Below are positions 1 to 60,635 of a stretch of DNA of 64,000 nucleotides, piece after piece (the stretch's first letter is position 1; the number at the start of each line of letters is the position of its first letter). Below the pieces are notes generated by a model. The model saw only the letters and a list, made by a program, of their open reading frames with translations. It did not search any database and was not told the DNA's origin. The stretch lies in assembly GCA_964016885.1 (NCBI GenBank), contig CAXHJY010001213.1, positions 1-64,000 on the forward strand, read 5' to 3'. The DNA is from Eledone cirrhosa (taxonomy: Eukaryota). The position numbers were made by a program, and so were the translations under genes.

Positions 1-49
1 ATATATATATATATATATATATAAATATATAATATATATATATACATAC

Positions 50-84
<35 letters not shown>

Positions 85-89
85 CATAC

Positions 90-122
<33 letters not shown>

Positions 123-127
123 CATAC

Positions 128-158
<31 letters not shown>

Positions 159-163
159 CATAC

Positions 164-196
<33 letters not shown>

Positions 197-231
197 CATA
201 CATATATATACATATATATATATATACATAC

Positions 232-262
<31 letters not shown>

Positions 263-263
<1 letters not shown>

Positions 264-1267
264 GTAGATAAATCTACCAAGAGTTTACGGTAGTGTCCAA
301 TCCGTATGAAGAACTCAATGTATTCCGGATATCATGGAAAGAAGAGATGTAATGAAAAATCACTTTCGGTGAAAGATAAACGGTATACAGAGTCAAGATA
401 AAATATTAAACAAATAATGAATAAACAATTCCTTATATTAAACAAAAAAAGTTCATTATTTAACGATCGTTTCTAGGATATATATGTGTTAGAATTGGTA
501 TGCATATTCAACAGATCTATGTACAAAATTATACAAAATTATACAAATTATGAAGATTAAATATACATACCAACACATATATACGCCGTCTTCAGAAATA
601 ATGAAGTATATTTATTGATAATAACAACAATTCAAAATTTCAGGTCCGTTTGGGAACAAAATTGACCAATGAAAACACAAAGGGTTAAATGCAGTTCGGT
701 GTGTGTATATACATGTAAAACCCTTACACATATTTTACAAAAATGTATGTATAATTTGTATACGCATACTAAAAGGATGGATGCAAATACAAAATTTCAA
801 GGTTAATGTCTCTGTAAGTTTATAATGCACAGATAAGATGCGTATTGACACTTATGAAATTAAGTATATAAATATATTTTTTCATACTCACACATATCCG
901 TACAAGCACACATACACGCGCGTATATGCATAAATATACACATAACCACGAACATACAAACACACACACACCCCCACTCACATTTATATATGTGGATATA
1001 AAATCATAAGCACATGGATATTAATTCACTCACATAAAACACTGGCACACACATTTTTAGATCAAGATACAGAAATTAGGTGGGAGGGGGGGGGAGAGGT
1101 CAGTATTCAACGGTCTGAGCAGACTGCCTAATATAGATGTATCTATAAACTAAGAAAATAAAAAATAATAAATAAACATTAAAGAGGAAAGAATAGAAAG
1201 AAAACAGAAAAAAGAAAAAAGAAAAAAGAAATATATCAAGAAAATAAATATATATATATACATATAT

Positions 1268-1306
<39 letters not shown>

Positions 1307-1487
1307 TATATATATATAATATACATATATATACACATAGACACACACACACACATACATAAATATACACACATATACAAACACATACATACATATACAC
1401 ACATCCACACTAAGAACATACATACACACATATATATAAACATATACATATACACACATACATATACACATATACATACAAATACAC

Positions 1488-1536
<49 letters not shown>

Positions 1537-2180
1537 TATGTATATACACGTACATATACACACACATATACATATAATCACACATACTATATAGACACAG
1601 ATATATATAACCACACACATACATGCACATATACAACACTTACATACTAATATACATACAGATATACACATACATAGCTATATATACACACAAATATATA
1701 CAGACTTACATATATACATACAGACAAATACTTACGCATCTATATATCGGTATATACATACAAACACCACTACACTATCACACAACTTAGAAATACAAAG
1801 AGAAAGGTATATACCTATACACACATACATATACAAATAGAAAAACATATAGATATATATATATATATATATACACACACATATACATATACATATATAT
1901 ATATAACATATATATATATATATATACATATACACATACATATACACATACACACACATACACATATACACACATACATACATGTACACACACATAGAAA
2001 TATTTACGCATACACACATACACACATACATATAAAGTCATATACACACATACACCTACACGAACATACACATACACATATATAAAGATATATATACACA
2101 CACACACACACACGCACAACATATACACACATACACATATATATAAAAAATAAATAATAAAGATATATACATATATATAT

Positions 2181-2225
<45 letters not shown>

Positions 2226-2580
2226 CACATAAATATACATACACATACATACACACATACATAGACATACTTGTACATACATACACGTACATCGATATAC
2301 ATACATATATATATACACACACATAGACATATACATACATACACACACAACTTACATACATACATATATATACATGTATATTCATACATAGAATTAGATA
2401 TATAATCATATATACATATGCACTTACTTATACTCATATATACAAATACATACGCATCCATATATGCGTATATACATAAAAACACCACTACAACCTCACC
2501 TAACTCAGACATACAAATAAAAATAATAATAAAAAGGCATATGTATATACATATATACACGCATTAATAGAGATATATAT

Positions 2581-2639
<59 letters not shown>

Positions 2640-2890
2640 TATACACACATACATTCATACATATATATATATAGATACCCACACACTCATACCACCATAA
2701 ATACACATACAAACACCCACATATACATATATATACACACGTATATATATATATATATATATACACACACATAAAAAACAGACATGCACAAATATATATA
2801 TTTTTTTACACTTATATATACACATATTATATACACATACACAACCTCACATATACACACATACACATAAGTTATATTATAATAATAAAA

Positions 2891-2931
<41 letters not shown>

Positions 2932-3023
2932 CATCTATATATATATATATATATATACATATAAACATATACATACATATATACACACATACGAATATAG
3001 ACATATATTCACACATAGACACC

Positions 3024-3057
<34 letters not shown>

Positions 3058-5318
3058 TACATATACACAGACACATATACACACTCACATATATATGTGT
3101 GTGTGCACACACACATATATACACACATACACTTATATACACATAAACACATATATGTGCATACATGCACACACACACACATATATCACATAGATACGAA
3201 GATAGACATATAAATAGAGAGACATACATATATATACAACACACATACACACACATACATACACACACATATACATATACATATATATATATATACATAT
3301 ATATATTCCTATATATACATATATACATACATATACATATATATATATATACATACACATATACATACACACATTCACATACACATACATATATACATGC
3401 ATATATACACATATATACATACATACACACACTCATATATACACACACAATCTTACATTCATATTTGCATGCGCATATATGTATTTTTATATTTAGATAT
3501 AAATACCCAAACCTATATAGACACCTACCTACATATATATTCATACATACACGCTTACAAATACAGATGATAATAGTATGGGGGAAAGGGGGGGTTTGGA
3601 GAAGGGGATCATAGTAAATATATGTTTCAAGAAACATAGAATATTTTCCGTATCTTTATCCAATGTATGTTTTTACATAGTTTCAGTGTTAGGAAATACA
3701 ACAAACAAGAACTAAGGCAAAATCTATGCATCTCAAAATAAACAAGTATACCATTAATTATATGTTAACTAAACCAAAGATAGTTAACATATTGATTTCT
3801 AAGGTGTAAATTAGTTAGGTTTATAATATTTGAAGCAGAATTTTGAAGTTAAATAGTAGTAGAGTATTAATTATAGTATAGCTAAATTAAAGTTAATAAC
3901 GTTATGGTATCAATATTAGGAAATGAATTTAGTAATAGGGAAAAAACAAATAAAATAAAGTATTACATCGGTAGTAGAATATAAATTATAGGTTAACTAA
4001 ATTAAAAATTATATATTTATTTCTATAGTATATGTTAATTAGGTATATAATACATAAAGCAGATATTGTATTTTATCAATAGCATAATATAATTATATGC
4101 AAATAGAAATCAAAACTAATACATATACATATACATATACATACACATACATATATATATACATATATATACACATATATATATATATACATATATACAC
4201 ATATACATACACACACACATACACGTACACATATACATATACATATCTTTTTCAAAAAAATTGCATAGAATATATTAACTAGGTATATATCCAAAACACA
4301 TCCCATTCTATGATTACATGACATTCTGCAATTCGTCTGTATAAGGATACTAATTTTAAGCAAATTAAAATTAAATTTTTATGTTGATTAAAATTAAAAC
4401 CAAATTATAAATATATTTCTAAAATGTATATTAATTAGGTCTATAATACTAAAAATTATTTCTCTGTCATTGGATACACGATATTATTTTGTTATATTTT
4501 ATCTGTAAAAGAATTATAATAAAAGGTTTAAATAAATTAAAATTAATCTATAAATTAAATTACTAAGTATATATTAGTAATATTTAAAGGTTTTTCACAA
4601 TTTATGATTACATAATATTTTATATTCTCATCTGTAATAAAATTTTAATTAAATTAAATTTATAGGTTAACTAACATTTAAATTAAATTAATTTCTAAAA
4701 TAATGTTATTAATTAGGTTTATAATATTTAAATGTTTTTTTTAGTTTATGATTACACGATATAATTAATTCCTGTCGTTTATTTAATAAGATATCCTTAG
4801 ATTTCATTATTTCAAATAGTTCTTGGGAACATAATCTACATTCATTTCTATTATTTTGATAAGGGGTGGCTCTTTTGAGCACACTCCAGGTCAAATCATA
4901 TTCTATATTCTTATTTTTATAACTATTGATTTTTTCTGCTAGAGATGTTGTATTAGCCAGTGCGGCATTTTTAAAAAACTATGCTTGTGGGTATTAAACC
5001 TTGTCTTCAAATTGTTAGAGGTAGCTCCTATATATGAGCAAATAGAATCTTTAGTTTTAACATTACATTTATAGACTATGTTGTTAACAAGACAATTCCC
5101 TTTTAATGGGCAGTTTGCTTTGTTTCTACAGTTACATCCTTTCGTTAATTCTGTATTTGAGGAGATATTATGGTTAATTTGATGTACTGGTGGTATACTT
5201 ATGGTTTTCTTACATTTATATGCATTATATGCACTTATATTTTGTTTTATGTTATTTGTTGTAGAGTATGAGAATTTAACTGTAGACCTATTTAAGATTT
5301 GATGGTATTTGTGGTTTG
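263..5318 (-). mobile_element. 5'-truncated inverted copy of the Penelope-like (Naiad-type) element: GIY-YIG C-terminus plus entire 3' UTR/pLTR, ending in (TA)n
   Basis: 398-5318 is the reverse complement of 7330-13299, apart from small differences and the RTE insertion in the right arm. ORF 4709-4894 matches the C-terminus of the 5475-7937 protein. A T-run expansion near 4973 shifts the frame. Confidence 0.93.
452..605 (-). ncRNA. Type I hammerhead ribozyme motif (family A, PLE pLTR)
   Basis: Reverse complement of the motif at 13092-13245. Confidence 0.75.
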
Positions 5319-5474
5319 TATTCTTGGTAGATTTATCTACATAATTTTGCTCCTACTTTCACGGAAATATTCGTATTTTTGTACTGTATGTGTGTATTAA
5401 TTTTATATTTATGTATATACATATATATATGTATGATTTTGTAAACCCATATACATTTAGTTGAGCTCTTTCAA

Positions 5475-7937
5475 TTGTCCATCATCCATATCACAATGGA
5501 AAAACAATATTTAGGAACCTCCTTAAAAAACATACCAATACCTTCTAAGGATGACTTCTTACTCCTTATGATTCAGAAAACTAATAATTTTATCAGAAGG
5601 GTTAGATGGAGAGCCTACCACTTCGATAGAAAATCTAAACAAGCAGATCGGAAATATATGTATGATTTCAATACTTACAAGAATCCACCACACAACTTTT
5701 TACTTGAAGACTTCGAGAAAGACCTTTTTAATTTAATTAAACACCTCAAATTTAAAAAGTATAAATCCGTCTTTCAAAAGGACCTTGATTCTACCCTATT
5801 GGACCTAAAAAAGTCTAAAAAAATCCATGTCCACTCGGACAAAACTGGTAACTTGTATCATATGGATATTGAACATTATAACGAGTTCATATATAAAGAA
5901 CTCAGAAAAAATTATAAAAAATCTAATAATGTGTCACTCACCAACATCAACAACAAAACACACAACATAGTAAAAAAACTAAACATTGAAGATAGAACTG
6001 AACCTTTGGCATTGAAAAGACCACACTTCAACCTGAAAGATCACAAATCTAACTTTAACTCAAATCCTTCTATTAGACTTATATGTCCCTCCAAATCAGA
6101 TATTGGAATAATTAGCAAAAAAATTTTAGATAGAGTCATCCCACAAATAAGAAAACACGTTATTTTACCACTCTGGGAAAACACCTCCCAGGTAATTAAC
6201 TGGTTTAAAAATATTAGGTGTAAATCTTCTGCTTCTTTCCTACAATTTGATATAGATAATTACTATTCTTCTATATCACCTATACTCCTGAACAAAGCAT
6301 TGATATTTGCTAAAAATAGATCTAACTTAACTTTGGATGACATTAATATTATTACACATGCTAGACTAACACTTATTGAATTTCAGAATGAATACTGGAC
6401 CAGAAACACATATAGTAATCTTTTTGATATTACTATGGGTTCAAGCGATTCCGCCCAAATTACTGATCTTGTGGGCCTCTTTCTCCTTTTCAACATAAAT
6501 GCCTCTTTTCCCCACCTCAAAGGTGGTTTATATCGTGATGACTGTCTTCTTCTTTCTAACAACCTTAGCCTTTCAGAAATTGAAAAAAACAAAAAACATA
6601 TTAGAACTTTCCTTAAAGACTATTATAATCTTAATATTACTTTTGAAAAAACAAGTAAAGTAGTAAATTTCCTAGATATAACTTTAGATTTAGCTACGGG
6701 TATCTACCAACCTTACCATAAACCTAACCAAAACTTACATTACATACACTCACAATCTAATCACCCTAAATCTATCCTTAAAAACCTTGCATATAATATA
6801 TCACTTAGAATTTCTAACCTTTCTTCTAACCAAGATGTATTTGATAAAAATGCGACCTTCTATAACGAAGCTCTAGATAGAAGTGGCCACAAAAATAGAT
6901 TAGAGTATATACCTTCTACTAAAAATACTGAAAGCATACAACATAATATTACCAACAAACACCAAATGAAAAGTACACACCTAAATGCCACCCACACTAT
7001 ACCCCAAAATACCAAATCTTCTAATATAAAGTATAGTAACTCTCAAAAAACTACTCATCATACAACTCTAATAAATATTAATAATAAAACTCCTAATAAA
7101 AAGGATAAAACACCTAAATCTACAAATATAACTAAAAATAGTTGTGGTGAGATCATTAACATTAATCCTCCTAGTAAAAATCACGATACAACCTATAAAA
7201 ATAATAAAAATAATAAACAACATAGAAACCGTAATAGACGGGTTACTTGGTATAATGCTCCTTTTAATTTACAAGTTAAGGATAATATTGCTAAAAAATT
7301 TTTTTATATCCTTGAGAAAAACTTCCCGCCAAACCACAAATACCATCAAATCTTAAATAGGTCTACAGTTAAATTCTCATACTCTACAACAAATAACATA
7401 AAACAAAATATAAGTGCATATAATACATATAAATGTAAGAAAACCATAAGTATACCACCAGTACATCAAATTAACCATAATATCTCCTCAAATACAGAAT
7501 TAACGAAAGGATGTAACTGTAGAAACAAAGCAAACTGCCCATTAAAAGGGAATTGTCTTGTTAACAACATAGTCTATAAATGTAATGTTAAAACTAAAGA
7601 TTCTATTTGCTCATATATAGGAGCTACCTCTAACAATTTGAAGACAAGGTTTAATACCCACAAGCATAGTTTTAAAAATGCCGCACTGGCTAATACAACA
7701 TCTCTAGCAGAAAAAATCAATAGTTATAAAAATAAGAATATAGAATATGATTTGACCTGGAGTGTGCTCAAAAGAGCCACCCCTTATCAAAATAATAGAA
7801 ATGAATGTAGATTATGTTCCCAAGAACTATTTGAAATAATGAAATCTAAGGATATCTTATTAAATAAACGACAGGAATTAATTATATCGTGTAATCATAA
7901 ACTAAAAAAAACATTTAAATATTATAAACCTAATTAA
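5475..7937 (+). CDS. PLE polyprotein: reverse transcriptase + Cys-rich linker + GIY-YIG endonuclease (first ATG at 5496)
   Basis: SLKNIPIP, RVRWRA, HSDKTGN (DKT), FDIDNYYSSI, TMGS..A, LYRDD (RT catalytic), CNCR..CPLKGNCL, IVYKC..YIGAT...KTRFNTH (GIY-YIG), CRLCSQE..LNKRQE..CNH. Uninterrupted 820-aa frame. Confidence 0.93.
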   Translation: MSIIHITMEKQYLGTSLKNIPIPSKDDFLLLMIQKTNNFIRRVRWRAYHFDRKSKQADRKYMYDFNTYKNPPHNFLLEDFEKDLFNLIKHLKFKKYKSVFQKDLDSTLLDLKKSKKIHVHSDKTGNLYHMDIEHYNEFIYKELRKNYKKSNNVSLTNINNKTHNIVKKLNIEDRTEPLALKRPHFNLKDHKSNFNSNPSIRLICPSKSDIGIISKKILDRVIPQIRKHVILPLWENTSQVINWFKNIRCKSSASFLQFDIDNYYSSISPILLNKALIFAKNRSNLTLDDINIITHARLTLIEFQNEYWTRNTYSNLFDITMGSSDSAQITDLVGLFLLFNINASFPHLKGGLYRDDCLLLSNNLSLSEIEKNKKHIRTFLKDYYNLNITFEKTSKVVNFLDITLDLATGIYQPYHKPNQNLHYIHSQSNHPKSILKNLAYNISLRISNLSSNQDVFDKNATFYNEALDRSGHKNRLEYIPSTKNTESIQHNITNKHQMKSTHLNATHTIPQNTKSSNIKYSNSQKTTHHTTLININNKTPNKKDKTPKSTNITKNSCGEIININPPSKNHDTTYKNNKNNKQHRNRNRRVTWYNAPFNLQVKDNIAKKFFYILEKNFPPNHKYHQILNRSTVKFSYSTTNNIKQNISAYNTYKCKKTISIPPVHQINHNISSNTELTKGCNCRNKANCPLKGNCLVNNIVYKCNVKTKDSICSYIGATSNNLKTRFNTHKHSFKNAALANTTSLAEKINSYKNKNIEYDLTWSVLKRATPYQNNRNECRLCSQELFEIMKSKDILLNKRQELIISCNHKLKKTFKYYKPN

Positions 7938-13785: not shown

Positions 13786-16700
13786 GATAGCAACTAACAG
13801 TGCTGCGATCGAATGTGGCTTTTTAGCCCAGCCAATGATCTAAAATGTCTTGCACAGAGTCGGCAACCAAAACATTTACTGGGAATAGTCGGCTGTGGTT
13901 GGAGTTCGTGTACTTTTGCATGTCGCTTGAGTCCTCCTGCTGATTTACATTCTCTACCACATGTTTGGCAAGCATGATGAGTAGCATCTCCAACAGCAGC
14001 CTGGTAGTCAACCACTGGTCTTACTTTATGACTGCGAAGATGACTTTCGAGTCCAGCTTTGCTTAGGCAGAGTCTCGCACAGACGCTGCATGTCAGAAAC
14101 ATAGGAGGACCCTCGCCGTCTGGAAGTGCAACAGCAATACCCTTCCTCACGTCCCGCTTTACTTTCTCGTGTGCGATTCGAGATGCCTCAAAGGCAACTT
14201 TTCCCTCATATACAGTCTTTCTCCATTTATTACGATCAGCAGCAATATTTTCCCATGTATCAGCAGAGATGTTAGCGTCTTTCAGAGAGGCCTTCAAGGA
14301 ATCCTTATACCTCTTTTTTGGTTTATGTGGCGGTCGTTTTCCTTTAACCAACTCTCCATAGAAGAGTTGTTTTGGTATTCTAGAATCCTTCATCCTGGCA
14401 AGGTGACCACTCCAACGGAGTCGCTGCTTAAGCACAAGAGCTTCTATACTGTCACACATAGAGCTTTCCAAAATCTCGACATCACTGATGTGGTCCCTCC
14501 AGCGAACGCCATGTATCCGTCTGAGACACATCTGATGGAAACGCTCCAATTGCTTAAGGTGGCGTCGATATGTGACCCAGGTCTCGCAGGCATAAAGAAG
14601 ACAAGAGAGTACACATGCCCTGTACACCTTTACCTTTGTCCTCCTGCATATGTCTCGCCGACCCCAGAGTCGCCTTTCTAGCTTTCCGAAAGCATCACTT
14701 GCTTTCCTAATCCTAAGTGAGATCTCACTGTCAAGGTTGCCGTATCGATTGACAGTGCTTCCCAGGTAGACAAACTGATCAACCACTCCAAGTCGTTTGC
14801 CATACACATAGATGTTTGGTTCAGTGTACTGCCTACCAGGTGCAGGTTGGTACATGACGACGGTTTTCTTGAGACTGACAGTCAAACCCAGGGCAGTGCA
14901 AGCGTCAGAAAATACATTCAAAATGTGCTGCATATCACTCTCTGTGTGCGCTACAAGATCGCAATCATCTGCATACAAGAGGTCTCTTATGACTGATGTA
15001 AATACTTTTGTCTTCGCAGCAAAGCGCCTGATGTTAAATATGCTGCCTGAGGTTCGATATCGGATGTAAACACCATGCTCGCAATTCCTGAATGCAATAC
15101 AGAAAACCATTGCAAAGTATATGGCAAACAGGGTCGGTGCTGGAATATCCCCCTGTTTCACTCCATTTTTTACTGAGATAGGCTCCGACATGCTACCTCC
15201 GACATTAACCCAAGCCTTCATGTCGTCATGGAAAGACCTAACTAAAGCAAGGAACTTATCAGGGCAACCAAGTTTCTGGAGAACCTTCCATAATGCATCT
15301 CTGTTGACAGTATCGAAAGCCTTTGTCAGATCGACAAAAACCTGATACAGATCCAAGCCCTGTTCAATGCACTTCTCCTGGAGCTGTCTAGCTGAGAAGA
15401 TCATATCAGTAGTGCCGCGTCCAACACGAAAACCAGATTGACTTTCAGGAAGGACACAATCTGCAATGTGTGTCAGCAGACGGTCCAGAAGCACCCTACA
15501 TAAAACTTTCCCCACGACAGAAAGCAATGATATACCTCTGTAGTTCCCACAATCATTCCTGTTACCCTTTCCCTTGTACAAGACCACCATTACTGCATCT
15601 CTCCAGTCCTCAGGCACGGATTCATTAGCCCATATCCTTCCAAACAGAGAGTGAAGATGTTGCAGGAGTCTCTCACCACCATATTGTAGGAGCTCAGCAT
15701 GTATGCCATCCATACCTGGAGATCTTCCACTGTTCAGCTTCGAAATAGCCACTGCAACCTCCACAAGTGTCGGAGGTTCTGCGAGAGCTACTTTCACAGG
15801 ACTTTCCGGAATGAGATTGAGGAAATCTTCACTGACGACAGACGGCTGATTCAAAAGATCATCAAAGTGCTCTCGCCACCTTCGTAGAATTCCCTGTGAG
15901 TCACGAAGAAGTTCTTTGCCATCCTTGCTGCGAATCGGTGTCACCAGAGAAGAAGACGGTCCATAAACCTCACGCAAGAGACTGTACAACAGCTTTGTGT
16001 TATTGCAATCAGACGCAGTTTGTATCTCACCAGCCTTCTCACTCCACCACTGATCCTTCATCTGAGAAAGACTCCGCCTAACACGTGATTTTACATCCCT
16101 GAGCTCCTCATGCAACGTATTCCTCTCCTGTGGTCTTGCCGTCAAGTAGCGTGACAGAGCGCGCCTCTTATCAGCCAACAAGTCATCTATATGCACATCC
16201 TTCTCATCAAACCAGTCCTGATGTTTTCTCTGCACCAATCCCAGAACACGTCTGCCTACATCATAAACCGACTTTTTAAGAGTCGGCCAATCCTCACCAA
16301 GATCTGCAGCCTGCATCTCTTCTTCCAATGTCCTCTTCACATTTTTATCCTTAAGACGAGCAGCATTCAATCTTTTGGGCAGGGCAACACCAGGAGCCCG
16401 GATTTTACGTTTGGTGATTAGATTCACTTTTGCGCGTACCAGGCGGTGGTCCGTCCAGCACTCAGCTCCACGAAGAACACGAACACACTGCACATCCTGT
16501 CTGTCACGCATCCTGACTAGGACGTAGTCCAAAAGATGCCATTCCTTAGATGCAGGATGCATCCATGTGGTCTTGAATTTGTTCTTTTGTTGGAACATGG
16601 TGCTGGTAACACACAGATCCAGCTCCTCACACATCTGCAGCAAGAGCATACCATTGCTGTTACACTTTCCCACCCCATGCCTTCCGATTACATTCCATGT

Positions 16701-17378
16701 GTTAAAATCCCTACCCACTCTAGCATTAAAGTCACCAAGCACGATGACTTTGTCTGCCTGAGGGATATTTCTTAAAACACCTTTCAAGGCATGGTAAAAG
16801 GACAGTTTTTCTTCATCGACAGAATTCATAGTTGGAGCATACACACTCACCAGGGTAGCATATCTTCCCTTGTCCAGCGGAACTCTCATGGACATAAGAC
16901 GCTCACTAATCCCCACTGGGAATTCTTCCAATTTATTCACCAGTACAGTCTTAACAGCAAATCCCACCCCAGCCTCTCTTCTGGTTCCTTCATCTCTTCC
17001 TTTCCAGAAGAATGTATATTCTCCACAAAATTCCGTAAGATGACCATCTCCAGCTAACCTCGTCTCAGACAAAGCCACGATGTCAAGATCGTAACGTCGA
17101 AGCTCCTTCGCAACAAGAGCGGTCCTTCGTTCAGGACGCTCCAAAGAATCCCTGTCAAGCAGCGTCCGTACGTTCCAGCAGCCAAGACTAAATGCCCTGT
17201 TTGGCTCTATTACAATGGCACGATGACGGGCGGGCCCAGGTTGTGATAACTTGGGGCCCCTGCCCTTATTGCCAATGATCTCTTTTGTTCCAGAACCCAA
17301 ATTGGCAATTATCTCGTTTACATTGTTCTGGAACATCATTGAATTGGAAAAAAAAAAAAAAAAAAAAAAGTAATAATA

Positions 17379-17413
<35 letters not shown>

Positions 17414-22089: not shown

Positions 22090-24080
22090 ATAAATAAATA
22101 CACACAGTCAGACAATTATGCGCATATATACACATACATACACACATCTCTACAAATATATATACACATACACATACATACACACACATATATATACATA
22201 TATATATATACAATCATACACACTTATTTACATGCGCACATATGTATTTTTATACTCACATACAAACACCCAAACATACATACATACTTACATACACATA
22301 CATACATCCACGCTTACAAATACGAATAATTATAGGGGGGGGGGGAAGGGGATTAAAATTATTAGTGGGAAATAGTAAATATAGGTTTCAAGGAACATAG
22401 AATATTAATCTGCATTTAGATCATAATATGTGTTTACATAGTAGTTTCAGTATTAGGAAATGTAAGAAAGAAGGCAAAATTATGCATTTTAATATAAGTA
22501 GACTATTAATTATAGGTTAACTAAATTAAAAATAGTTAATATATTGATTTCTAAGGTGTATACTACTTAGGTTTATAATATTTAAAGCGGAATTTTGAAG
22601 TTAAACAGTAGTAGAGTATTAATTATAGCATAACTAAATTAAAAATATTAACATTATGGTATCAATTTTAGGAAATGAATTTAGTAATAGGGAAAACCAA
22701 ATCAAGTATTTCATCGGTAGTAGCATATAAATTATAGGTTAACTAAACTAAAAATTATATATTAATTTCTATAGTATATGTTAATTAGGTTTATAATAAT
22801 TAAAGCAGATTTTGTATTTTATCTATAGTAGAATATAATTATAGGTTAACAAAAATTAAAATTAATCTATATATTTATTTGTAAAGAATATATTAATTAG
22901 GTATATATTTAAAAGTTTTTCTCAGTTTATGATTACATGATATTCTGCAATCCATCTGTATTAGAATTTTAATTTTAAGCTAACTAAATTAAAATTATAG
23001 GTTAATTAAATTAAAATTAATTTATAAATTAATTTCTAAATTGTACATTAATTAGGTTTATAATATTAAAAAGTATTTCTCTGTTATTGATTACACGATA
23101 TTTTGTTATATTTCATCTGTAAAGGAATTTTAATAAAAGGTTAAATAAACTAAAATTAATCTATAAATTAATTTCCAAAGTATATATTAATTATGTTAAT
23201 AATATTTAAAAGTTTTTCACAATTTATGATTACACAATATTTTTTTAATCTCATCTGTAGTAGAATTTTAATTAAATTAAAGTTATAGGTTAACTACATT
23301 TAAATTAAATTATATATTAATTTCTAAAATATATATTATTAATTAGGTTTATAATATTTAAATGTTTTTCTCAGTTTATGATTACACGATATAATTAATT
23401 CCTGTCGCTTATTTAATAGGATATCCTTAGATTTCATTATTTCAAATAGTTCTTGGGAACACAATCTACATTCATTTCTATTATTTTGATAAGGGGTGGC
23501 TCTTTTGAGCACACTCCAGGTCATATCATATTCTATATTCTTATTTCTATAACTATTAATTTTTTCTGCTAGAGATGTTGTATTAGCCAGTGCGGCATTT
23601 TTAAAAAAACTATGTTTGTGGGTATTAAACCTTACCTTAAAATTGTTAGAAGTAGCTCCGATATATGAGCAAATAGAATCTTTAGTTTTAACTTTACATT
23701 TATAAACTATGTTGTTAACAAGACAATTTCCTTTTAATGGGCAGTTTGCTTTGTTTCTACAGTTACAACCTTTCGTTAATTCTGTATTTGAGGAGATATT
23801 ATGGTTAGTTTGATGTATTGGTGGTATACTTATGGTTTTTTTACATTTATATGCATTATAGGCACTTATATTTTGTTTTATGTTTTTGGTTGTTGAGTAT
23901 GAGAATTTAACTGTTGATCTATTTAAGATTTGATGGTATTTGTGGTTTGGCGGGAAGTTTTTCTCTAGGATATAAACAAATTTTTTAGCAATATTATCCT
24001 TAATTTGTAAATTAAATGGAGCATTATACCAAGTAACTCGTCTATTACGGTTTCTATGTTGTTTATTATTTTTATAGGTT
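20514..24080 (-). mobile_element. Diverged 5'-truncated third copy of the Naiad-type PLE (GIY-YIG + 3' UTR + HHR)
   Basis: 23339-24080 encodes a near-identical GIY-YIG region. It has the same 3' terminus (TGTAGATAAATCTACC on +) abutting (TA)n. Confidence 0.92.
20712..20864 (-). ncRNA. Type I hammerhead ribozyme motif (family A, third copy)
   Basis: Core CTGAAGA, GAAACGATCGTT and the 10-bp stem I are identical to the other two copies, while stem II carries substitutions. Confidence 0.72.
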
Positions 24081-29556: not shown

Positions 29557-30092
29557 GGGATAGCGACCAAAAGTTTACCCTAAAATGGGAAAAATTAGCT
29601 AAAACCCAAAGCTTTTCCAGGAGCCAAAATTTCTGCAAATTGTGTAATCTTGAGATTTATTACATAATCACACACAAGAAGAAACTGCTGAATAACAGAA
29701 TTGAACGAACATTATTCTGCCGTCACAGAACTAAAACCCTTTTTTCCCACTACAAGCCGAATATTACATAAAAGAGGGACATCCCCCAACTATATAAACC
29801 TTAATCTAGTTAGAAAAATATAAAAACAATCTCTTCTCAACATATATTAATAACCTTAAATTACCATACTAATAATGAAAAGATATGCTGATGAGAATAG
29901 ATACAAATATGCGAGAATGAATGTGTCTAAAAACGTCCATAAGTATGTATATATATGTGAAAATGTATATAAATAAGTAAATATATATATATGTTTGATG
30001 TGTATAGTTAGATGTAAGTGTATTCATGTATTAAAGTGCTTATATATATATATGTATGTATATATGTGTATATGTATGTGTATGTATATATG

Positions 30093-36039: not shown

Positions 36040-36937
36040 TTTACAATAGATTATAACTTTGTCTATTAATTTGTAAGGTGAGCAAATGGGGTCCCACGTG
36101 CTGGCATCCCCACATCCCCTGCGGACAAGATGAAGAAGGTATTTCTCCGGCGGTTGGTAAGGGAGATGCGCTGGAAGAGCCATTCCAACTCGCGAGGCTC
36201 ACACCTGCGGCTGGCCATCTCAGCACCTATGGTGGTGAATAGGGAGGTAGCCCTAGGGCCAAGGACACCAGAAGTCTCCACTGCCAAGGGCACGACCGCG
36301 AACCTATCGGAGAGTGACCGGTACTTGGAGAGTTTGGCCTCCTCAGCCCGACGTGCAGCAGTACCTGGGTTAGTCGCAGACTGCACCAGCTTGCGGCTCG
36401 AGAAAGTGTCGCTGCAACTGGCATCCCAGACGAGCGATTTGCCACCGCGGAACGGGAAGATGGTCATACCGTCTGGCCTTTTGCCATCCCTCGGTCGAGC
36501 CCCACCGACTCGAGCTGGGAGGGGAAGTCTGCAGCGTCCAAGCCATGCTTATTGACCCCGTTGAGTGCAGCATGACGTAGAAAGCGGCCGGCACTGTGGT
36601 GACAGGAAAGCGAGTGGAAGCCGAAAGAGTCCACGGTGGATCCACAGCGACATTTATGTGGCTTGCAGATCCGGAGTCCAAACCTCAAGAAAACGCCGAT
36701 GCGCAAGGCATGGAGCAAGGCATGGAGCCAGGCACCACTGTGGGGTTTGGAGGCAGCGCGAAAACAGGCAAGGCGGTGCTGGTCGAGCTGGCGCGTGAGC
36801 CTGTCTGAGGCCAGGCTGCACTGGATGGCATCCCATACGCGTTGGGGGAGAAGGAGGAGGGACGTCTACTGGGGTAAGTCCCAGCCTGTCCCACGTCTCA
36901 TAGGCGACCTCACGCTCCCTGAACACAGAGGGTTCTA
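36040..36937 (-). pseudogene. CRE-clade non-LTR retrotransposon 3' fragment (zinc knuckle + RLE), frameshifted
   Basis: CRCGSTVDSFGFHSLSC, RHAALN, MTIFPFRGGKSLVWDASC, PLAVETSG. Paralogous to 59093-60635. Confidence 0.85.
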
Positions 36938-43089: not shown

Positions 43090-43833
<744 letters not shown>

Positions 43834-54466: not shown

Positions 54467-54522
<56 letters not shown>

Positions 54523-54530
<8 letters not shown>

Positions 54531-55175
54531 GAAAAGTATAGAAATTGTTGTAGCGAGAAGCTAACAGTATTCCATAACATATATGTGACTATAGCGTCAA
54601 AATGGGAAAATAGTTAACATAAGATATGGGAAAAATAATTCAGACTCAATTCAAAAGGAATCAGGATATAGATTTATCCAACAGAATTTAGAGAAATCCA
54701 GGGAAAAATCAATAAAGCCTTAACTCATGATAAAACAAAGTCTAAAGTACTCAACCTTCAATTTGGGACAACTTCAAATGCTCTGTATAGTCTTGAAAAG
54801 ACTATTTCACGAAAACTTTCAGTGGAGATGGTCACGGTTGGATTTCGTTCCTCAGCAGAGCTCAACATGGTAACCAAGGTCTCACTGGTAATATGCCAAA
54901 AAGGGAATTTAAAAGCAGGCTAGTTTAACATCATGCGTGGTTATTAAAATAAACGCACATGTGTAAAAACAAGGCTGGAGACGTCAGAATGAGACAAATG
55001 TTTGTTTACATGAAACAACAGTCAAAAACATTCCGAAAGAAAACTCTACAAAAGGAGTTCAGCAAAAAGCAATATCATCGCGGTTTTTTTCCCCAAAAAA
55101 ATACCGCGATTAGTCACAAATAATTTAAGCACTCTAAGAAATAAATCCGAGTATATATATATATATAAATGAAAA

Positions 55176-55180
<5 letters not shown>
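54523..55180 (-). mobile_element. 640-bp retrozyme-like monomer with terminal redundancy (family F)
   Basis: ATATAAATGAAAAGTATA occurs at both ends (54523 and 55163). It contains a canonical HHR and is flanked by (TA)n. Confidence 0.75.
54780..54861 (-). ncRNA. Canonical monomeric type I hammerhead ribozyme (family F)
   Basis: Reverse complement reads GCTCTG-CTGAGGA-ACGAAA(28 nt)TTTCGT-GAAA-TAGTCT TTTCA AGACTA-TA-CAGAGC. All three stems pair perfectly. Confidence 0.9.
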
Positions 55181-55244
<64 letters not shown>

Positions 55245-55461
55245 ATCAAAAGATGGTTAAAAGAGTTCCATGTATTTTATTATGCGCATTTCAAAAACAA
55301 ATATCATCATGCAATAATATTTGTGTTTTCATCAGATAAAATAGGAAGACATGATATGAAGGTTAAAAAACACTTGTGAATAGTGCAGTTTTAAATCAAC
55401 ATATCAGTTTTAAATCAACATATTTGCATTGCTTTATTGTACTACAATAAAACTCACCTCC

Positions 55462-55497
<36 letters not shown>

Positions 55498-55845
55498 AGT
55501 TAATATAAATTAATATATGATAAACACATAAGTGTTTGTATTGCAAAAGACGAAGTTAGCTAGAATGAAATAAACTAATTAAAATAAATATAGTTTGTCC
55601 GTCTCGATATAAATCAATAAAAACAAGCTCATATTGGCAAAAGTCGTGATTCCTGGACAAATTTAAATTTCAAAATCCAAACCTGCTCCGTAGATGAATT
55701 TGAACTTCAAAACCTAAATATGTTTCGTAACGGTGGTATAAAAAGTGAAATATTCAAATCTTCTGTGCTTATCAACAGGAATCCAGAAAAATTAGTACAT
55801 TTCACCTCCAAAAATTTTGCAGGACTATATATATATATAAAACAA

Positions 55846-56487
55846 TCGCTAAAACAATCTCTATACCTCTCATTTATATTTATACTCGGATTCTTTTCCT
55901 GGAGTGCTTAAACTATCTGTGACTAATCCCGGTTTTTTTCATAAAAACTGTGATAATTATTGCTATTTTTGCTGAACTCCTTTTGTGGAGTTTTTTTCAG
56001 AATGTATTTGACTGCTATTTCTTGTAAATAAACATTCACTTACATCCAGACGTCACTAGCCCCGTTTTTTCCCCATGTGCTTTTTCATAACTACACATGA
56101 TGGCGAACTAGCCAGTTTTAGAATTCCCTTTTTCGGATTATAATACTGTGAGAGCCCTGGTTTTCTGTTGAGCTCTGCTGATGAATGAAATCCAATCGTG
56201 ACCATCTCCACTTTAAGACTATACAGAGCATTTGTTGTTATTCCAAATTGAAGGATAAGTGTTTTAAACTTTATTTTATCATGAGTTAAAGGTCTATTGA
56301 TTTTTCCCTGGATTGCACTAAATTCTGTGGATGAATTTGTATCCTGATTCTCTTTTGAGATGAGTTTGAATTATTTTTCCTAAATCTTACGTTAACTACT
56401 TTTCCCATCTTGACGTTATAGTCGCATATATGTTATAGAATGCTGTTAGCTTCTCGCTAAAACAATCTCTATACCTCTCATTTATAT
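55846..56487 (+). mobile_element. Diverged second family-F monomer (608-bp period, 34-bp terminal redundancy); HHR has an internal deletion
   Basis: TCGCTAAAACAATCTCTATACCTCTCATTTATAT at 55846 and 56454. Homologous to rc 54523-55180. GCTCTG-CTGATGA at 56172 and CAGAGC at 56224, with the GAAA/stem III 5' strand deleted. Confidence 0.75.
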
Positions 56488-59092: not shown

Positions 59093-60635
59093 GGCCCCTC
59101 TCAACGTTTGGTATCTGGATGATGCTACGTTGGGCGGGCCCGTACGGACGGTCTGCAAAGACCTTCAATCGGTGATTCCTACCCTGGCGGGAATCGGCCT
59201 CCAGGTCAACTCGGCCAAGTCGGAGGTGGTGAACGTCAGCCTCGATGCTGTGAGCTTTGCAGCCTCCGTCTTGGACGTGCGGTCCATTCTCCGCCAGGTT
59301 CAGGTGACTCCCCAAAGAGGATGTCCTCATCCTCGGGTCACCGATCCATCCGCCGGCCATCCGCTCCACCATCAGGTCGAGGCTTCAACAACTCCAGACT
59401 CTCACGAGCCGACTGGGCTTGATTGACGGCCACCCAGCTCCCTTTCTGCTGAGGAACTGCTTCGCCATGCCGAAGCTCTTCTAAACACTCCGCAGCGCTC
59501 CATGCTACACCCAGACATCTCTCCTCGCTGACCTCGATACTTGTATCCGAACAGCAGCCGAGGGGATATGCAACGTCAAGTTTGACGACATAGGGTGGCA
59601 ACAGGCCACTTTACCGGTCAGGTATGGCGGCCTAGGCCTCCGGTCCCCGATCTCCTAGCTTTGCCGGCGTATCTTTCGTCGGTAACCTCGTGCCGCGTCC
59701 TCGTCAGCAGGGTTCTTCAAAACACAACAGAACCCTCTGTGTTCAGAGAACGTGAGGCCGCCTGTGAGACGTGGGACCGGTTGGAACTTAGCCCAGTAGA
59801 CGTCCCTTCTCCTTCTCCCCCTGTTGACGTCAAGTCCCCCCAACGCACTTGGGATGCCATCCAGAGCAGCCTGGCCTCAGACAGGCTCACGCGCCAGCTC
59901 GACCAGCACCGCCTTGCTTGTTTTCGTGCGGCCTCCAAACCCCACAGTGGTGCCTGGCTCCATGCTCTGCCCTCCTTCTCCACTGGCACGCAGCTAGACA
60001 ACCATAGCCTGCGAATCGGCATTTCCCTGAGGCTCGGCCTCCGGATCTGCCAGCCACACCAATGTCGCTGCGGTTCCACCGTGGACTCTTTCGGCCTCCA
60101 CCCGCTTTCCTGTCGCCACAGTGCCGGCCACATTCCACGCCATACTGCCCTCAACGAGGTCATTAAGCATGGCTTGGACGCTGCAGGCTTCCCTTCCCAG
60201 CTCGAGCCGGTGGGGCTGGATCGAGGGGACGGCAAAAGGCCAGATGGCATGACCATCTTCCCGTTCCGAGGTGGCAAACCCCTCGTCTGGGATGCCACTT
60301 GCACCGACACTTTCTGCAGCCGCAATCTGGTGCAGTCTGCGACTGACCCAGGTTCTGCTGCACGTCGGGCTGAGGGGGCCAAACTCCTCAAATACCGGTC
60401 GCCCGCCGACAGGTTTGCGGTCGTTCCCCTGGCAGTGGAAACTTCTGGTGTCCTCAGCCCCAGGGCTACCTCCTTACTCACTAACATAGGCGCGGAGCTG
60501 GCCAGCCGTAGGTGTGAGCCCCGCGAGTTGGAGTGGCTTTTCCAGCGCGTCTCCCTTGCCGTCCTCCGGGGAAACGCCTTCTCCATTCTGTCCGCCGGGG
60601 CTGTGGGTGGGCCCCATCGCGTACCATTACATTAG
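59093..60635 (+). pseudogene. CRE-clade non-LTR retrotransposon, 5'-truncated (RT C-half, zinc knuckle, RLE)
   Basis: NVWYLDDATL (RT), in-frame TAA near 59482 plus frameshifts, HSGAWLHALP, CRCGSTVDSFGLHPLSC, RHTALN, DGKRPDG..WDATC, PLAVETSG, LRGNA. Confidence 0.88.

Follow-up and report, generated by a model that had tools for sequence, protein, structure and literature searches.

A dispersed hammerhead-bearing family in the genome of Eledone cirrhosa, very probably of non-LTR retrozymes acting as non-autonomous Penelope-like elements

The window analysed, a stretch of 64,000 nt from Eledone cirrhosa (GenBank assembly GCA_964016885.1, contig CAXHJY010001213.1, positions 1 to 64,000), is filled with repeats, and the 3.0-Gb host genome is rich in TA microsatellites. 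Two copies of a unit of about 630 bp, designated A and B, could be located in it together with the following features.

54474–54526, no strand: (TA)n target into which the fixed 3' end of copy A runs; 100 of 103 loci show this junction
54527–55176, minus strand: copy A, subfamily A, composed of a redundant 10-nt piece of the 3' end (55167–55176), an AT tract (55153–55166) and the full unit (55152–54527)
54780–54861, minus strand: type I hammerhead of copy A, with stem I of 6 bp, stem II of 6 bp carrying a 28-nt loop, and stem III of 7 bp
55177–55241, no strand: (TA)n sequence bordering copy A on its 5' side
55243–55465, minus strand: fragment of another, unrelated hammerhead family, inserted between A and B in this TA hotspot, with CUGAUGA at 55335 and predicted cleavage after 55281
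55838–55845, plus strand: short slip duplication of period 12 at the 5' junction of copy B
55846–56483, plus strand: copy B, subfamily B, composed of a redundant 3'-end piece of 30 nt (55846–55875), an 8-nt AT junction and the unit (55884–56483)
56172–56229, plus strand: broken hammerhead of copy B, with CUGAUGA at 56178, a 23-nt deletion after 56212 and loss of GAAA
56484–56504, no strand: (TA)n target adjoining copy B at its fixed 3' end

Unit positions were numbered from window position 55152 downwards, with cleavage after position 367 and the 3' end at 626. The original prediction of two diverged copies in opposite orientation was confirmed, as copy A (minus) and copy B (plus) were 78% alike over 727 alignment columns, and no third copy was found within the 64,000-nt window. 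The direct repeat of 34 bp predicted for copy B could be verified as 30 unique nt plus AT letters, the copy repeating its own 3' end at the 5' side with a period of 608. The 18-bp repeat predicted for copy A was upheld only for 10 unique nt (55167–55176), the remainder being TA common to the flanks. The unit has a low GC content of 33–34% and contains no ORF, the longest Met-ORF being 56 codons, and it lacks an LTR and foreign internal sequence. No promoter was found in the unit. Two consensus patterns of the Pol III A and B boxes gave no exact match on either strand of copy A, and a tRNA-derived SINE was rejected on these patterns; a literature search under the name of one cephalopod SINE gave only unrelated papers.

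The predicted hammerhead of copy A consists of CUGAGGA (54855–54849), GAAA (54808–54805) and an AUA cleavage site after 54786 on the minus strand, and its three stems of 6, 6 and 7 bp agreed with the earlier description. The loss of GAAA from copy B was likewise confirmed; compared with its own subfamily, the 23-nt deletion removed the 3' strand of stem II, GAAA and the 5' strand of stem III. With one apparently working ribozyme in A and none in B, the window copies are probably dead ends. The isolated 82-nt motif of copy A had the hammerhead as its minimum-energy fold (−20.0 kcal/mol), and in a 106-nt piece with flanks the hammerhead was not the favoured fold (z −0.93). An Rfam scan revealed no hammerhead at the gathering score nor at E ≤ 5, for which the 28-nt loop 2 may be the reason.

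The hammerhead core was intact in 43 of 47 pieces of subfamily A, 33 of 36 of B and 7 of 9 of C (83/92 overall). When the majority sequence of A was compared with that of B, differences fell on 3 of the 82 positions of the ribozyme and on 93 of the 544 others (p = 0.0008); two of the three ribozyme differences make up a compensatory C-G/U-A pair in stem II, and the third lies in loop 3. Core position 7 was the sole core position varying freely in subfamily A (22 U, 13 C, 12 G). This is the free position of the hammerhead in the established numbering. Taken together, conservation and covariation indicate that the ribozyme is under selection. Against its function stands the first pair of stem II, which is U.U in two subfamilies; stem I was mostly unformed (P 0.05) in circular folds of the A and C majority sequences. 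Judged from the 7-bp stem III, cleavage as a monomer is plausible. Loop 2 (54848–54815, minus strand) was nearly invariant across subfamilies, and by inspection it could pair with GGUU 5' of stem I (54875–54870, minus strand) as a possible pseudoknot. An 'anti-ribozyme' segment at unit positions 1–30 was visible in A and C, where shuffled sequences did as well in 4/60 and 5/60 cases, but was absent from B (33/60), and it was therefore not supported.

Genome-wide, an exact 32-letter pattern from the 5' half of the ribozyme gave 777 matches, while the reversed control gave 0. Searches of the same genome with DNA of A and B returned 3972 and 2966 first-look candidates, which are not copy numbers, and the best 40 and 39 were scored. 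The copies are dispersed over many chromosomes and fall into at least four subfamilies: A, B, C (88% to A) and a fourth. A 3'-end look-alike adjoining locus L088 had been considered as an autonomous partner and was found to be subfamily C of the unit itself. A total of 103 loci was analysed, with 16 duplicate or overlapping ones dropped and the set partly selected on the 3' end. The predicted non-coding retrozyme-like family was thus borne out by a unit that has no ORF, keeps a conserved type I hammerhead and occurs throughout the genome.

The original prediction of a fixed priming point at the internal TA-rich stretch also stood. The 3' end lay at unit positions 620–626 in 100 of the 103 loci, followed by a microsatellite that was nearly always (AT)n, and 25 of 27 loci selected instead on the first 91 bp of the unit reached 621–626. 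This end sits at an internal AT tract, about 260 nt 3' of the cleavage site. Only this single 3' end occurred in the analysed loci, and neither a second one nor a 'tail' of 30–40 bp, an optional feature of Penelope-like elements in the literature, was found.

The 5' ends were variable, lying from 35 bp to more than 3 units upstream of the 3' end, with clusters at internal AT-rich points (position 1 and 566–573) and at 338–346. The copies picked by their 3' end (n = 56; 29 loci of A, selected with the final 101 bp, and 27 of C, selected with a 36-nt end pattern) were 35 to 1038 bp long; 13 of the 56 reached one unit and 43 fell below it, so that copying over 'just over one turn' could not be retained as a rule. 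The form of a monomer with short redundancy is real in both window copies, but it represents a single point in a continuous range of lengths. Elsewhere (e.g. L125, L206, L209) the unit formed arrays, from 2 to 6+ units long, in which two or more complete hammerheads follow one another; the window copies have no such succession. Redundancies of variable length and multimers, as anticipated earlier for the genomic copies, were therefore both observed. The sequences of these ends indicate that the terminal repeats are the overshoot of polarised copying and not a fixed design. The alternative that the repeats are target site duplications was ruled out, as they are unit sequence of variable length; such duplications are unreadable inside (TA)n.

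Several loci showed further details of their ends. Many copies of subfamily C (L127–L155) were 54–61 bp long, starting at an internal ATATAT and having AT microhomology at both ends. Two of about 100 loci (L068 and L143) carried 5'-inverted pieces, a typical trait of Penelope-like insertions, and at L048 about 30 bp of flank was duplicated, in inverted orientation, on either side of the insertion.

The region upstream of the unit's first 91 bp bears on whether the unit is the pseudo-LTR of an unsampled ORF-bearing Penelope-like element, its copies being truncation products, as had been raised earlier. Retrozymes are often homologous to pseudo-LTRs, with 24 of 57 Xenopus families matching known elements, and at most the best 40 candidates were scored in each of the DNA searches. 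However, the unit closes on itself: the upstream sequence was its own 3' end in 24 of 27 cases and (TA)n in 3/27, with an ORF or shared foreign sequence in 0/27. Together with a longest Met-ORF of only 56 codons and three Hydra-clade families that do not match the unit, this makes a pseudo-LTR very improbable.

Comparably improbable is a satellite spread at the DNA level, by unequal crossover or extrachromosomal DNA circles, with the hammerhead as a relic. Arrays of 4.5 or more units (L123, L206, L207, L214) carry shared variants with a period of 2 or 3, the mark of DNA duplication. On the other hand, the copies are polarised, the 3' end being fixed and the 5' end free on the strand that carries the ribozyme in sense orientation; they lie on many chromosomes, the ribozyme is selectively conserved, and the junction is that of autonomous retroelements. 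DNA-level spread is therefore largely refuted as the means of dispersal and explains the growth of long arrays only. Based on its anatomy, the family is very probably a non-LTR retrozyme that acts as a non-autonomous Penelope-like element.

Candidate mobilisers of such an element were present outside the unit, one of them in the window itself.

5496–7937, plus strand: ORF of a Hydra-clade Penelope-like element, with reverse transcriptase and C-terminal GIY-YIG, in an intact 830-codon frame (5445–7937)

The RWR, DKT and CxCx5C motifs of this frame match the definition of the Hydra clade in the available text of PMC8557442. Its endonuclease gave 64,478 first-look candidates, of which the best 150 were scored and all were 99–100% identical. 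No Pfam family was matched by the Hydra ORF, and a metagenome scan with the Hydra protein gave no match. Of 20 downstream regions of this family (family 1), 17 could be mapped, and 13 of the 17 ended at one point, TTTAT|(AT)n, which lies some 64 nt downstream of a putative hammerhead site; one copy ended at that site itself. Family 1 (5445–7937, plus strand) is very young and very abundant, with inverted or partial copies at about 1–5318 and 22590–24075. Its tandem unit measures 6.7–6.9 kb with a microsatellite-filled 3' UTR, compared to a clade figure of <3 kb, and its putative hammerhead carries an insert of about 110 nt in stem II.

A second Hydra family (L244, L235–L264) has a 3.5-kb unit with a 784-codon frame. 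All 26 of its terminal copies ended in TAT|(AT)n, at two points about 80 nt apart, and 16 other matches ran into the next unit. Although every member of the Hydra clade is said to carry a hammerhead, family 2 had no CUGANGA in its 3' UTR, and it formed tandems nonetheless. A third young Penelope-like family is represented at 29559–29771 (plus strand; L215–L234) by its endonuclease end, for which 150 of 39,891 first-look candidates were scored, at 100%. The junction of the retrozyme with its target belongs to the TAT|(AT)n type of the two Hydra families. The unit had no similarity to the three local Hydra families at E < 0.1 and E < 0.5. The target and the junction suggest that an element of Hydra type is probably the mobiliser.

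Whether the template of copying was a circle or a linear RNA was assessed from the cleavage site and from the joints. The cleavage site was crossed by 104 pieces, 100 of them without an indel there, and a start at the site was possible in one of 103 loci (position 364, ambiguous with TA) and in 0/56 of those selected by the 3' end. These crossings, and the single possible start, argue against a linear monomer, cleaved and copied a single time, as the main template. Deletions over the site occurred in 4 of 104 crossings compared to about 0.8% per interval elsewhere in the unit (p = 0.011; ≤ 3/120 in other intervals), which gives a weak hint of trimmed ends.

In subfamily B the head-to-tail joints are constant. 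Its redundant piece differed from the last unit of the same locus at 88 of 8167 positions (1.1%, arrays included) compared to 3.6% between loci. With the secondarily duplicated array excluded (20 loci), lineage markers were in the same state in 73/79 comparisons, where random pairs agreed at 0.27 and reached at most 0.53 over 500 draws; none of the 49 differences seen within loci recurred at another locus. Both results are predicted if one molecule was read twice. Subfamily A was uninformative in this respect or spoke slightly against it, with 6 concordant and 9 discordant markers and a difference of 3.3% within loci and 3.8% between; a star-like burst that left few true markers would presumably give such a result. 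Arrays of 2.5–3.4 units (L124, L125, L209, L211) had private, star-like differences and look like single events. In arrays of 4.5 or more units (L123, L206, L207, L214), period-2 variants, and in one case period-3 variants, were confined to the interior, and the terminal units or partials differed, which points to later DNA duplication. Long arrays were accordingly not used as evidence of many turns of reverse transcription or of a dimer circle.

A linear template with the same family and mobiliser would be either an uncleaved tandem transcript or a monomer on which the reverse transcriptase jumps from the 5' to the 3' end; as part of the same reading, the hammerhead would cut the RNA out of read-through transcripts. 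In vitro, the main substrate of a Poseidon element was uncleaved RNA, according to the available text of PMC11167929. Tandems need no ribozyme circle, as they are formed by Hydra family 2 without a canonical hammerhead and by Naiads (available text of PMC8557442), and family 2 in particular keeps a linear or template-jump origin alive. The long, internally homogenised arrays could serve as linear sources, and the few deletions spanning the cleavage site may be scars of jumps. From a linear tandem source, however, sibling copies should inherit the differences among its units, which is opposed by the 0/49 recurrence and the 73/79 agreement of subfamily B; most crossings of the site are free of indels, and stem III, strong and of the monomer type, speaks for efficient cleavage. 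A linear template thus appears possible but rather doubtful. The marker data fit a circular template, though not uniquely, and a circular RNA is, somewhat better than evenly, the most likely reading of these sequences.

The combined explanation that we favour, with confidence moderately above even, is that these non-autonomous Penelope-like elements (non-LTR retrozymes) are copied from circles and mobilised by the Hydra clade. Source loci with two hammerheads (at least about 1.55 units) would be transcribed, and the transcript would cleave itself to unit-length RNA that is ligated into a circle. A Hydra-clade Penelope-like RT-endonuclease would nick a (TA)n tract, and the nicked strand would anneal by about 3–5 nt to the internal AU tract of the unit RNA. 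The internal joint of subfamily B leaves pure (AT)n after 4–5 nt, which sets an upper bound on the priming microhomology. Reverse transcription would then circle the template until falling off, giving sub-unit copies, copies of a unit plus redundancy or short multimers, and arrays of 4.5 units or more would have grown afterwards by DNA duplication. We only tentatively propose the more specific reading, that the Hydra-clade enzyme copies a ribozyme-made circle of 630 nt for up to about 3.4 turns without shared sequence, primed by 3–5 nt of AT microhomology 260 nt from the ligation site; the same tentative reading holds that the hammerhead variant, with its conserved 28-nt loop 2 and possible pseudoknot, is built to act as a monomer.

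The class itself is known, and both the unit size and a mechanism from circle to tandem cDNA are already in print, as far as the available texts extend. The available text of Li, Clavereau and Pollet 2026 (bioRxiv 10.64898/2026.07.22.740005) gives non-LTR retrozymes of 51–972 bp, often monomeric, and proposes retrozymes as non-autonomous Penelope-like derivatives; the unit size, considered unusual in the original prediction, lies within these consensus lengths and is not exceptional. Target-primed tandem cDNA from circles was proposed by Cervera and de la Pena 2020 (PMC7229834, available text). Like the metazoan non-LTR retrozymes in the accessible parts of both sources, the unit is non-coding and low in GC, has one type I hammerhead per unit and no LTR, forms monomers, dimers and multimers, and occurs alongside Penelope-like elements. 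It differs in its length of about 630 bp, compared to 170–400 nt for the circles cloned in PMC7229834, and in having a stem III of 6–7 bp with a conserved 28-nt loop 2, where theirs is short and palindromic. Most of its copies are truncated on the 5' side and share one fixed 3' end placed in (TA)n, a structure that the same parts of those sources do not describe, and no homology to a local pseudo-LTR was found.

Hydra elements favour (TA)n targets (Craig et al. 2021, PMC8557442, available text), and the unit shares with them this targeting, the fixed 3' end, the TAT|(AT)n junction and the hammerhead, as well as 5' truncation, partial tandems and occasional 5' inversions. Unlike them it is ORF-less, measures 0.63 kb compared to 3.5–6.9 kb, has one 3' end and no 'tail', and does not resemble the three local families in sequence. 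The non-autonomous Chlamys elements such as MRC1 described in that text, Penelope-like elements with pseudo-LTRs, likewise target microsatellites and form head-to-tail multicopy insertions, but they resemble their autonomous partners at the 3' end, mostly have no hammerheads, and live in algal hosts. Naiads in the same portion form partial tandems without hammerheads.

In Poseidon PAc (Frangieh et al. 2024, PMC11167929, available text), reverse transcription is similarly initiated at an internal point of the RNA, on the 3' side of the hammerhead site, at AT-rich DNA; PAc, however, is autonomous, with two sites and no homology, where the unit has one site and 3–5 nt of AT microhomology. The plant LTR retrozymes are likewise non-autonomous with hammerheads and form circles of 600–1000 nt, but their type III hammerhead, LTRs, PBS/PPT and 4-bp target site duplications do not apply to the unit (available texts of PMC7229834 and bioRxiv 10.64898/2026.07.22.740005). 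A plant-type LTR retrozyme was rejected, as the topology is type I and the redundancy is variable and part of the unit. Literature searches found no paper on the unit family, which Repbase, Dfam, subscription journals or supplements may list.

A circular RNA template for more-than-unit copies was proposed in PMC4209133, and partial tandems with a self-priming model were described in PMC3846280 (available text of both). In the literature available in part, from 2014 onwards, circular RNA has been put forward, but not shown, as the template for the 'more-than-unit' reverse transcription of retrozymes and Penelope-like elements, and the sole in vitro system (PMC11167929, available text) points to uncleaved linear RNA. 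In the present family the copies are young and dispersed, their synthesis begins at one fixed point, subfamily markers can be followed, and Hydra partners that look active share the genome, so that a circular and a linear template become directly testable against each other. If the circular reading is true, the copies would be a genomic record of rolling-circle reverse transcription, and the family would provide a simple natural system for circular RNA as the template behind Penelope-like partial tandems.

Other elements were observed in the TA tracts and in the window. The fragment at 55243–55465 (minus strand) had no similarity to the unit and belongs to a family with a short palindromic stem III of the dimer type, which was also seen as an inverted pair at 43571–43829 and at L124 and L224. 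Further minimal-hammerhead families share TA tracts in the flanks of L012, L014, L017, L022, L036, L043, L044, L066 and L073, and the genome seems to be a hotspot of hammerhead elements. An intact frame of 1205 codons with endonuclease- and RT-like motifs lies at 13794–17411 (minus strand), which we take to be an RTE-type LINE. Fragments at 59586–60635 (plus strand) and 36066–36865 (minus strand) presumably represent, by resemblance, the C-terminal nuclease region of another non-LTR element.
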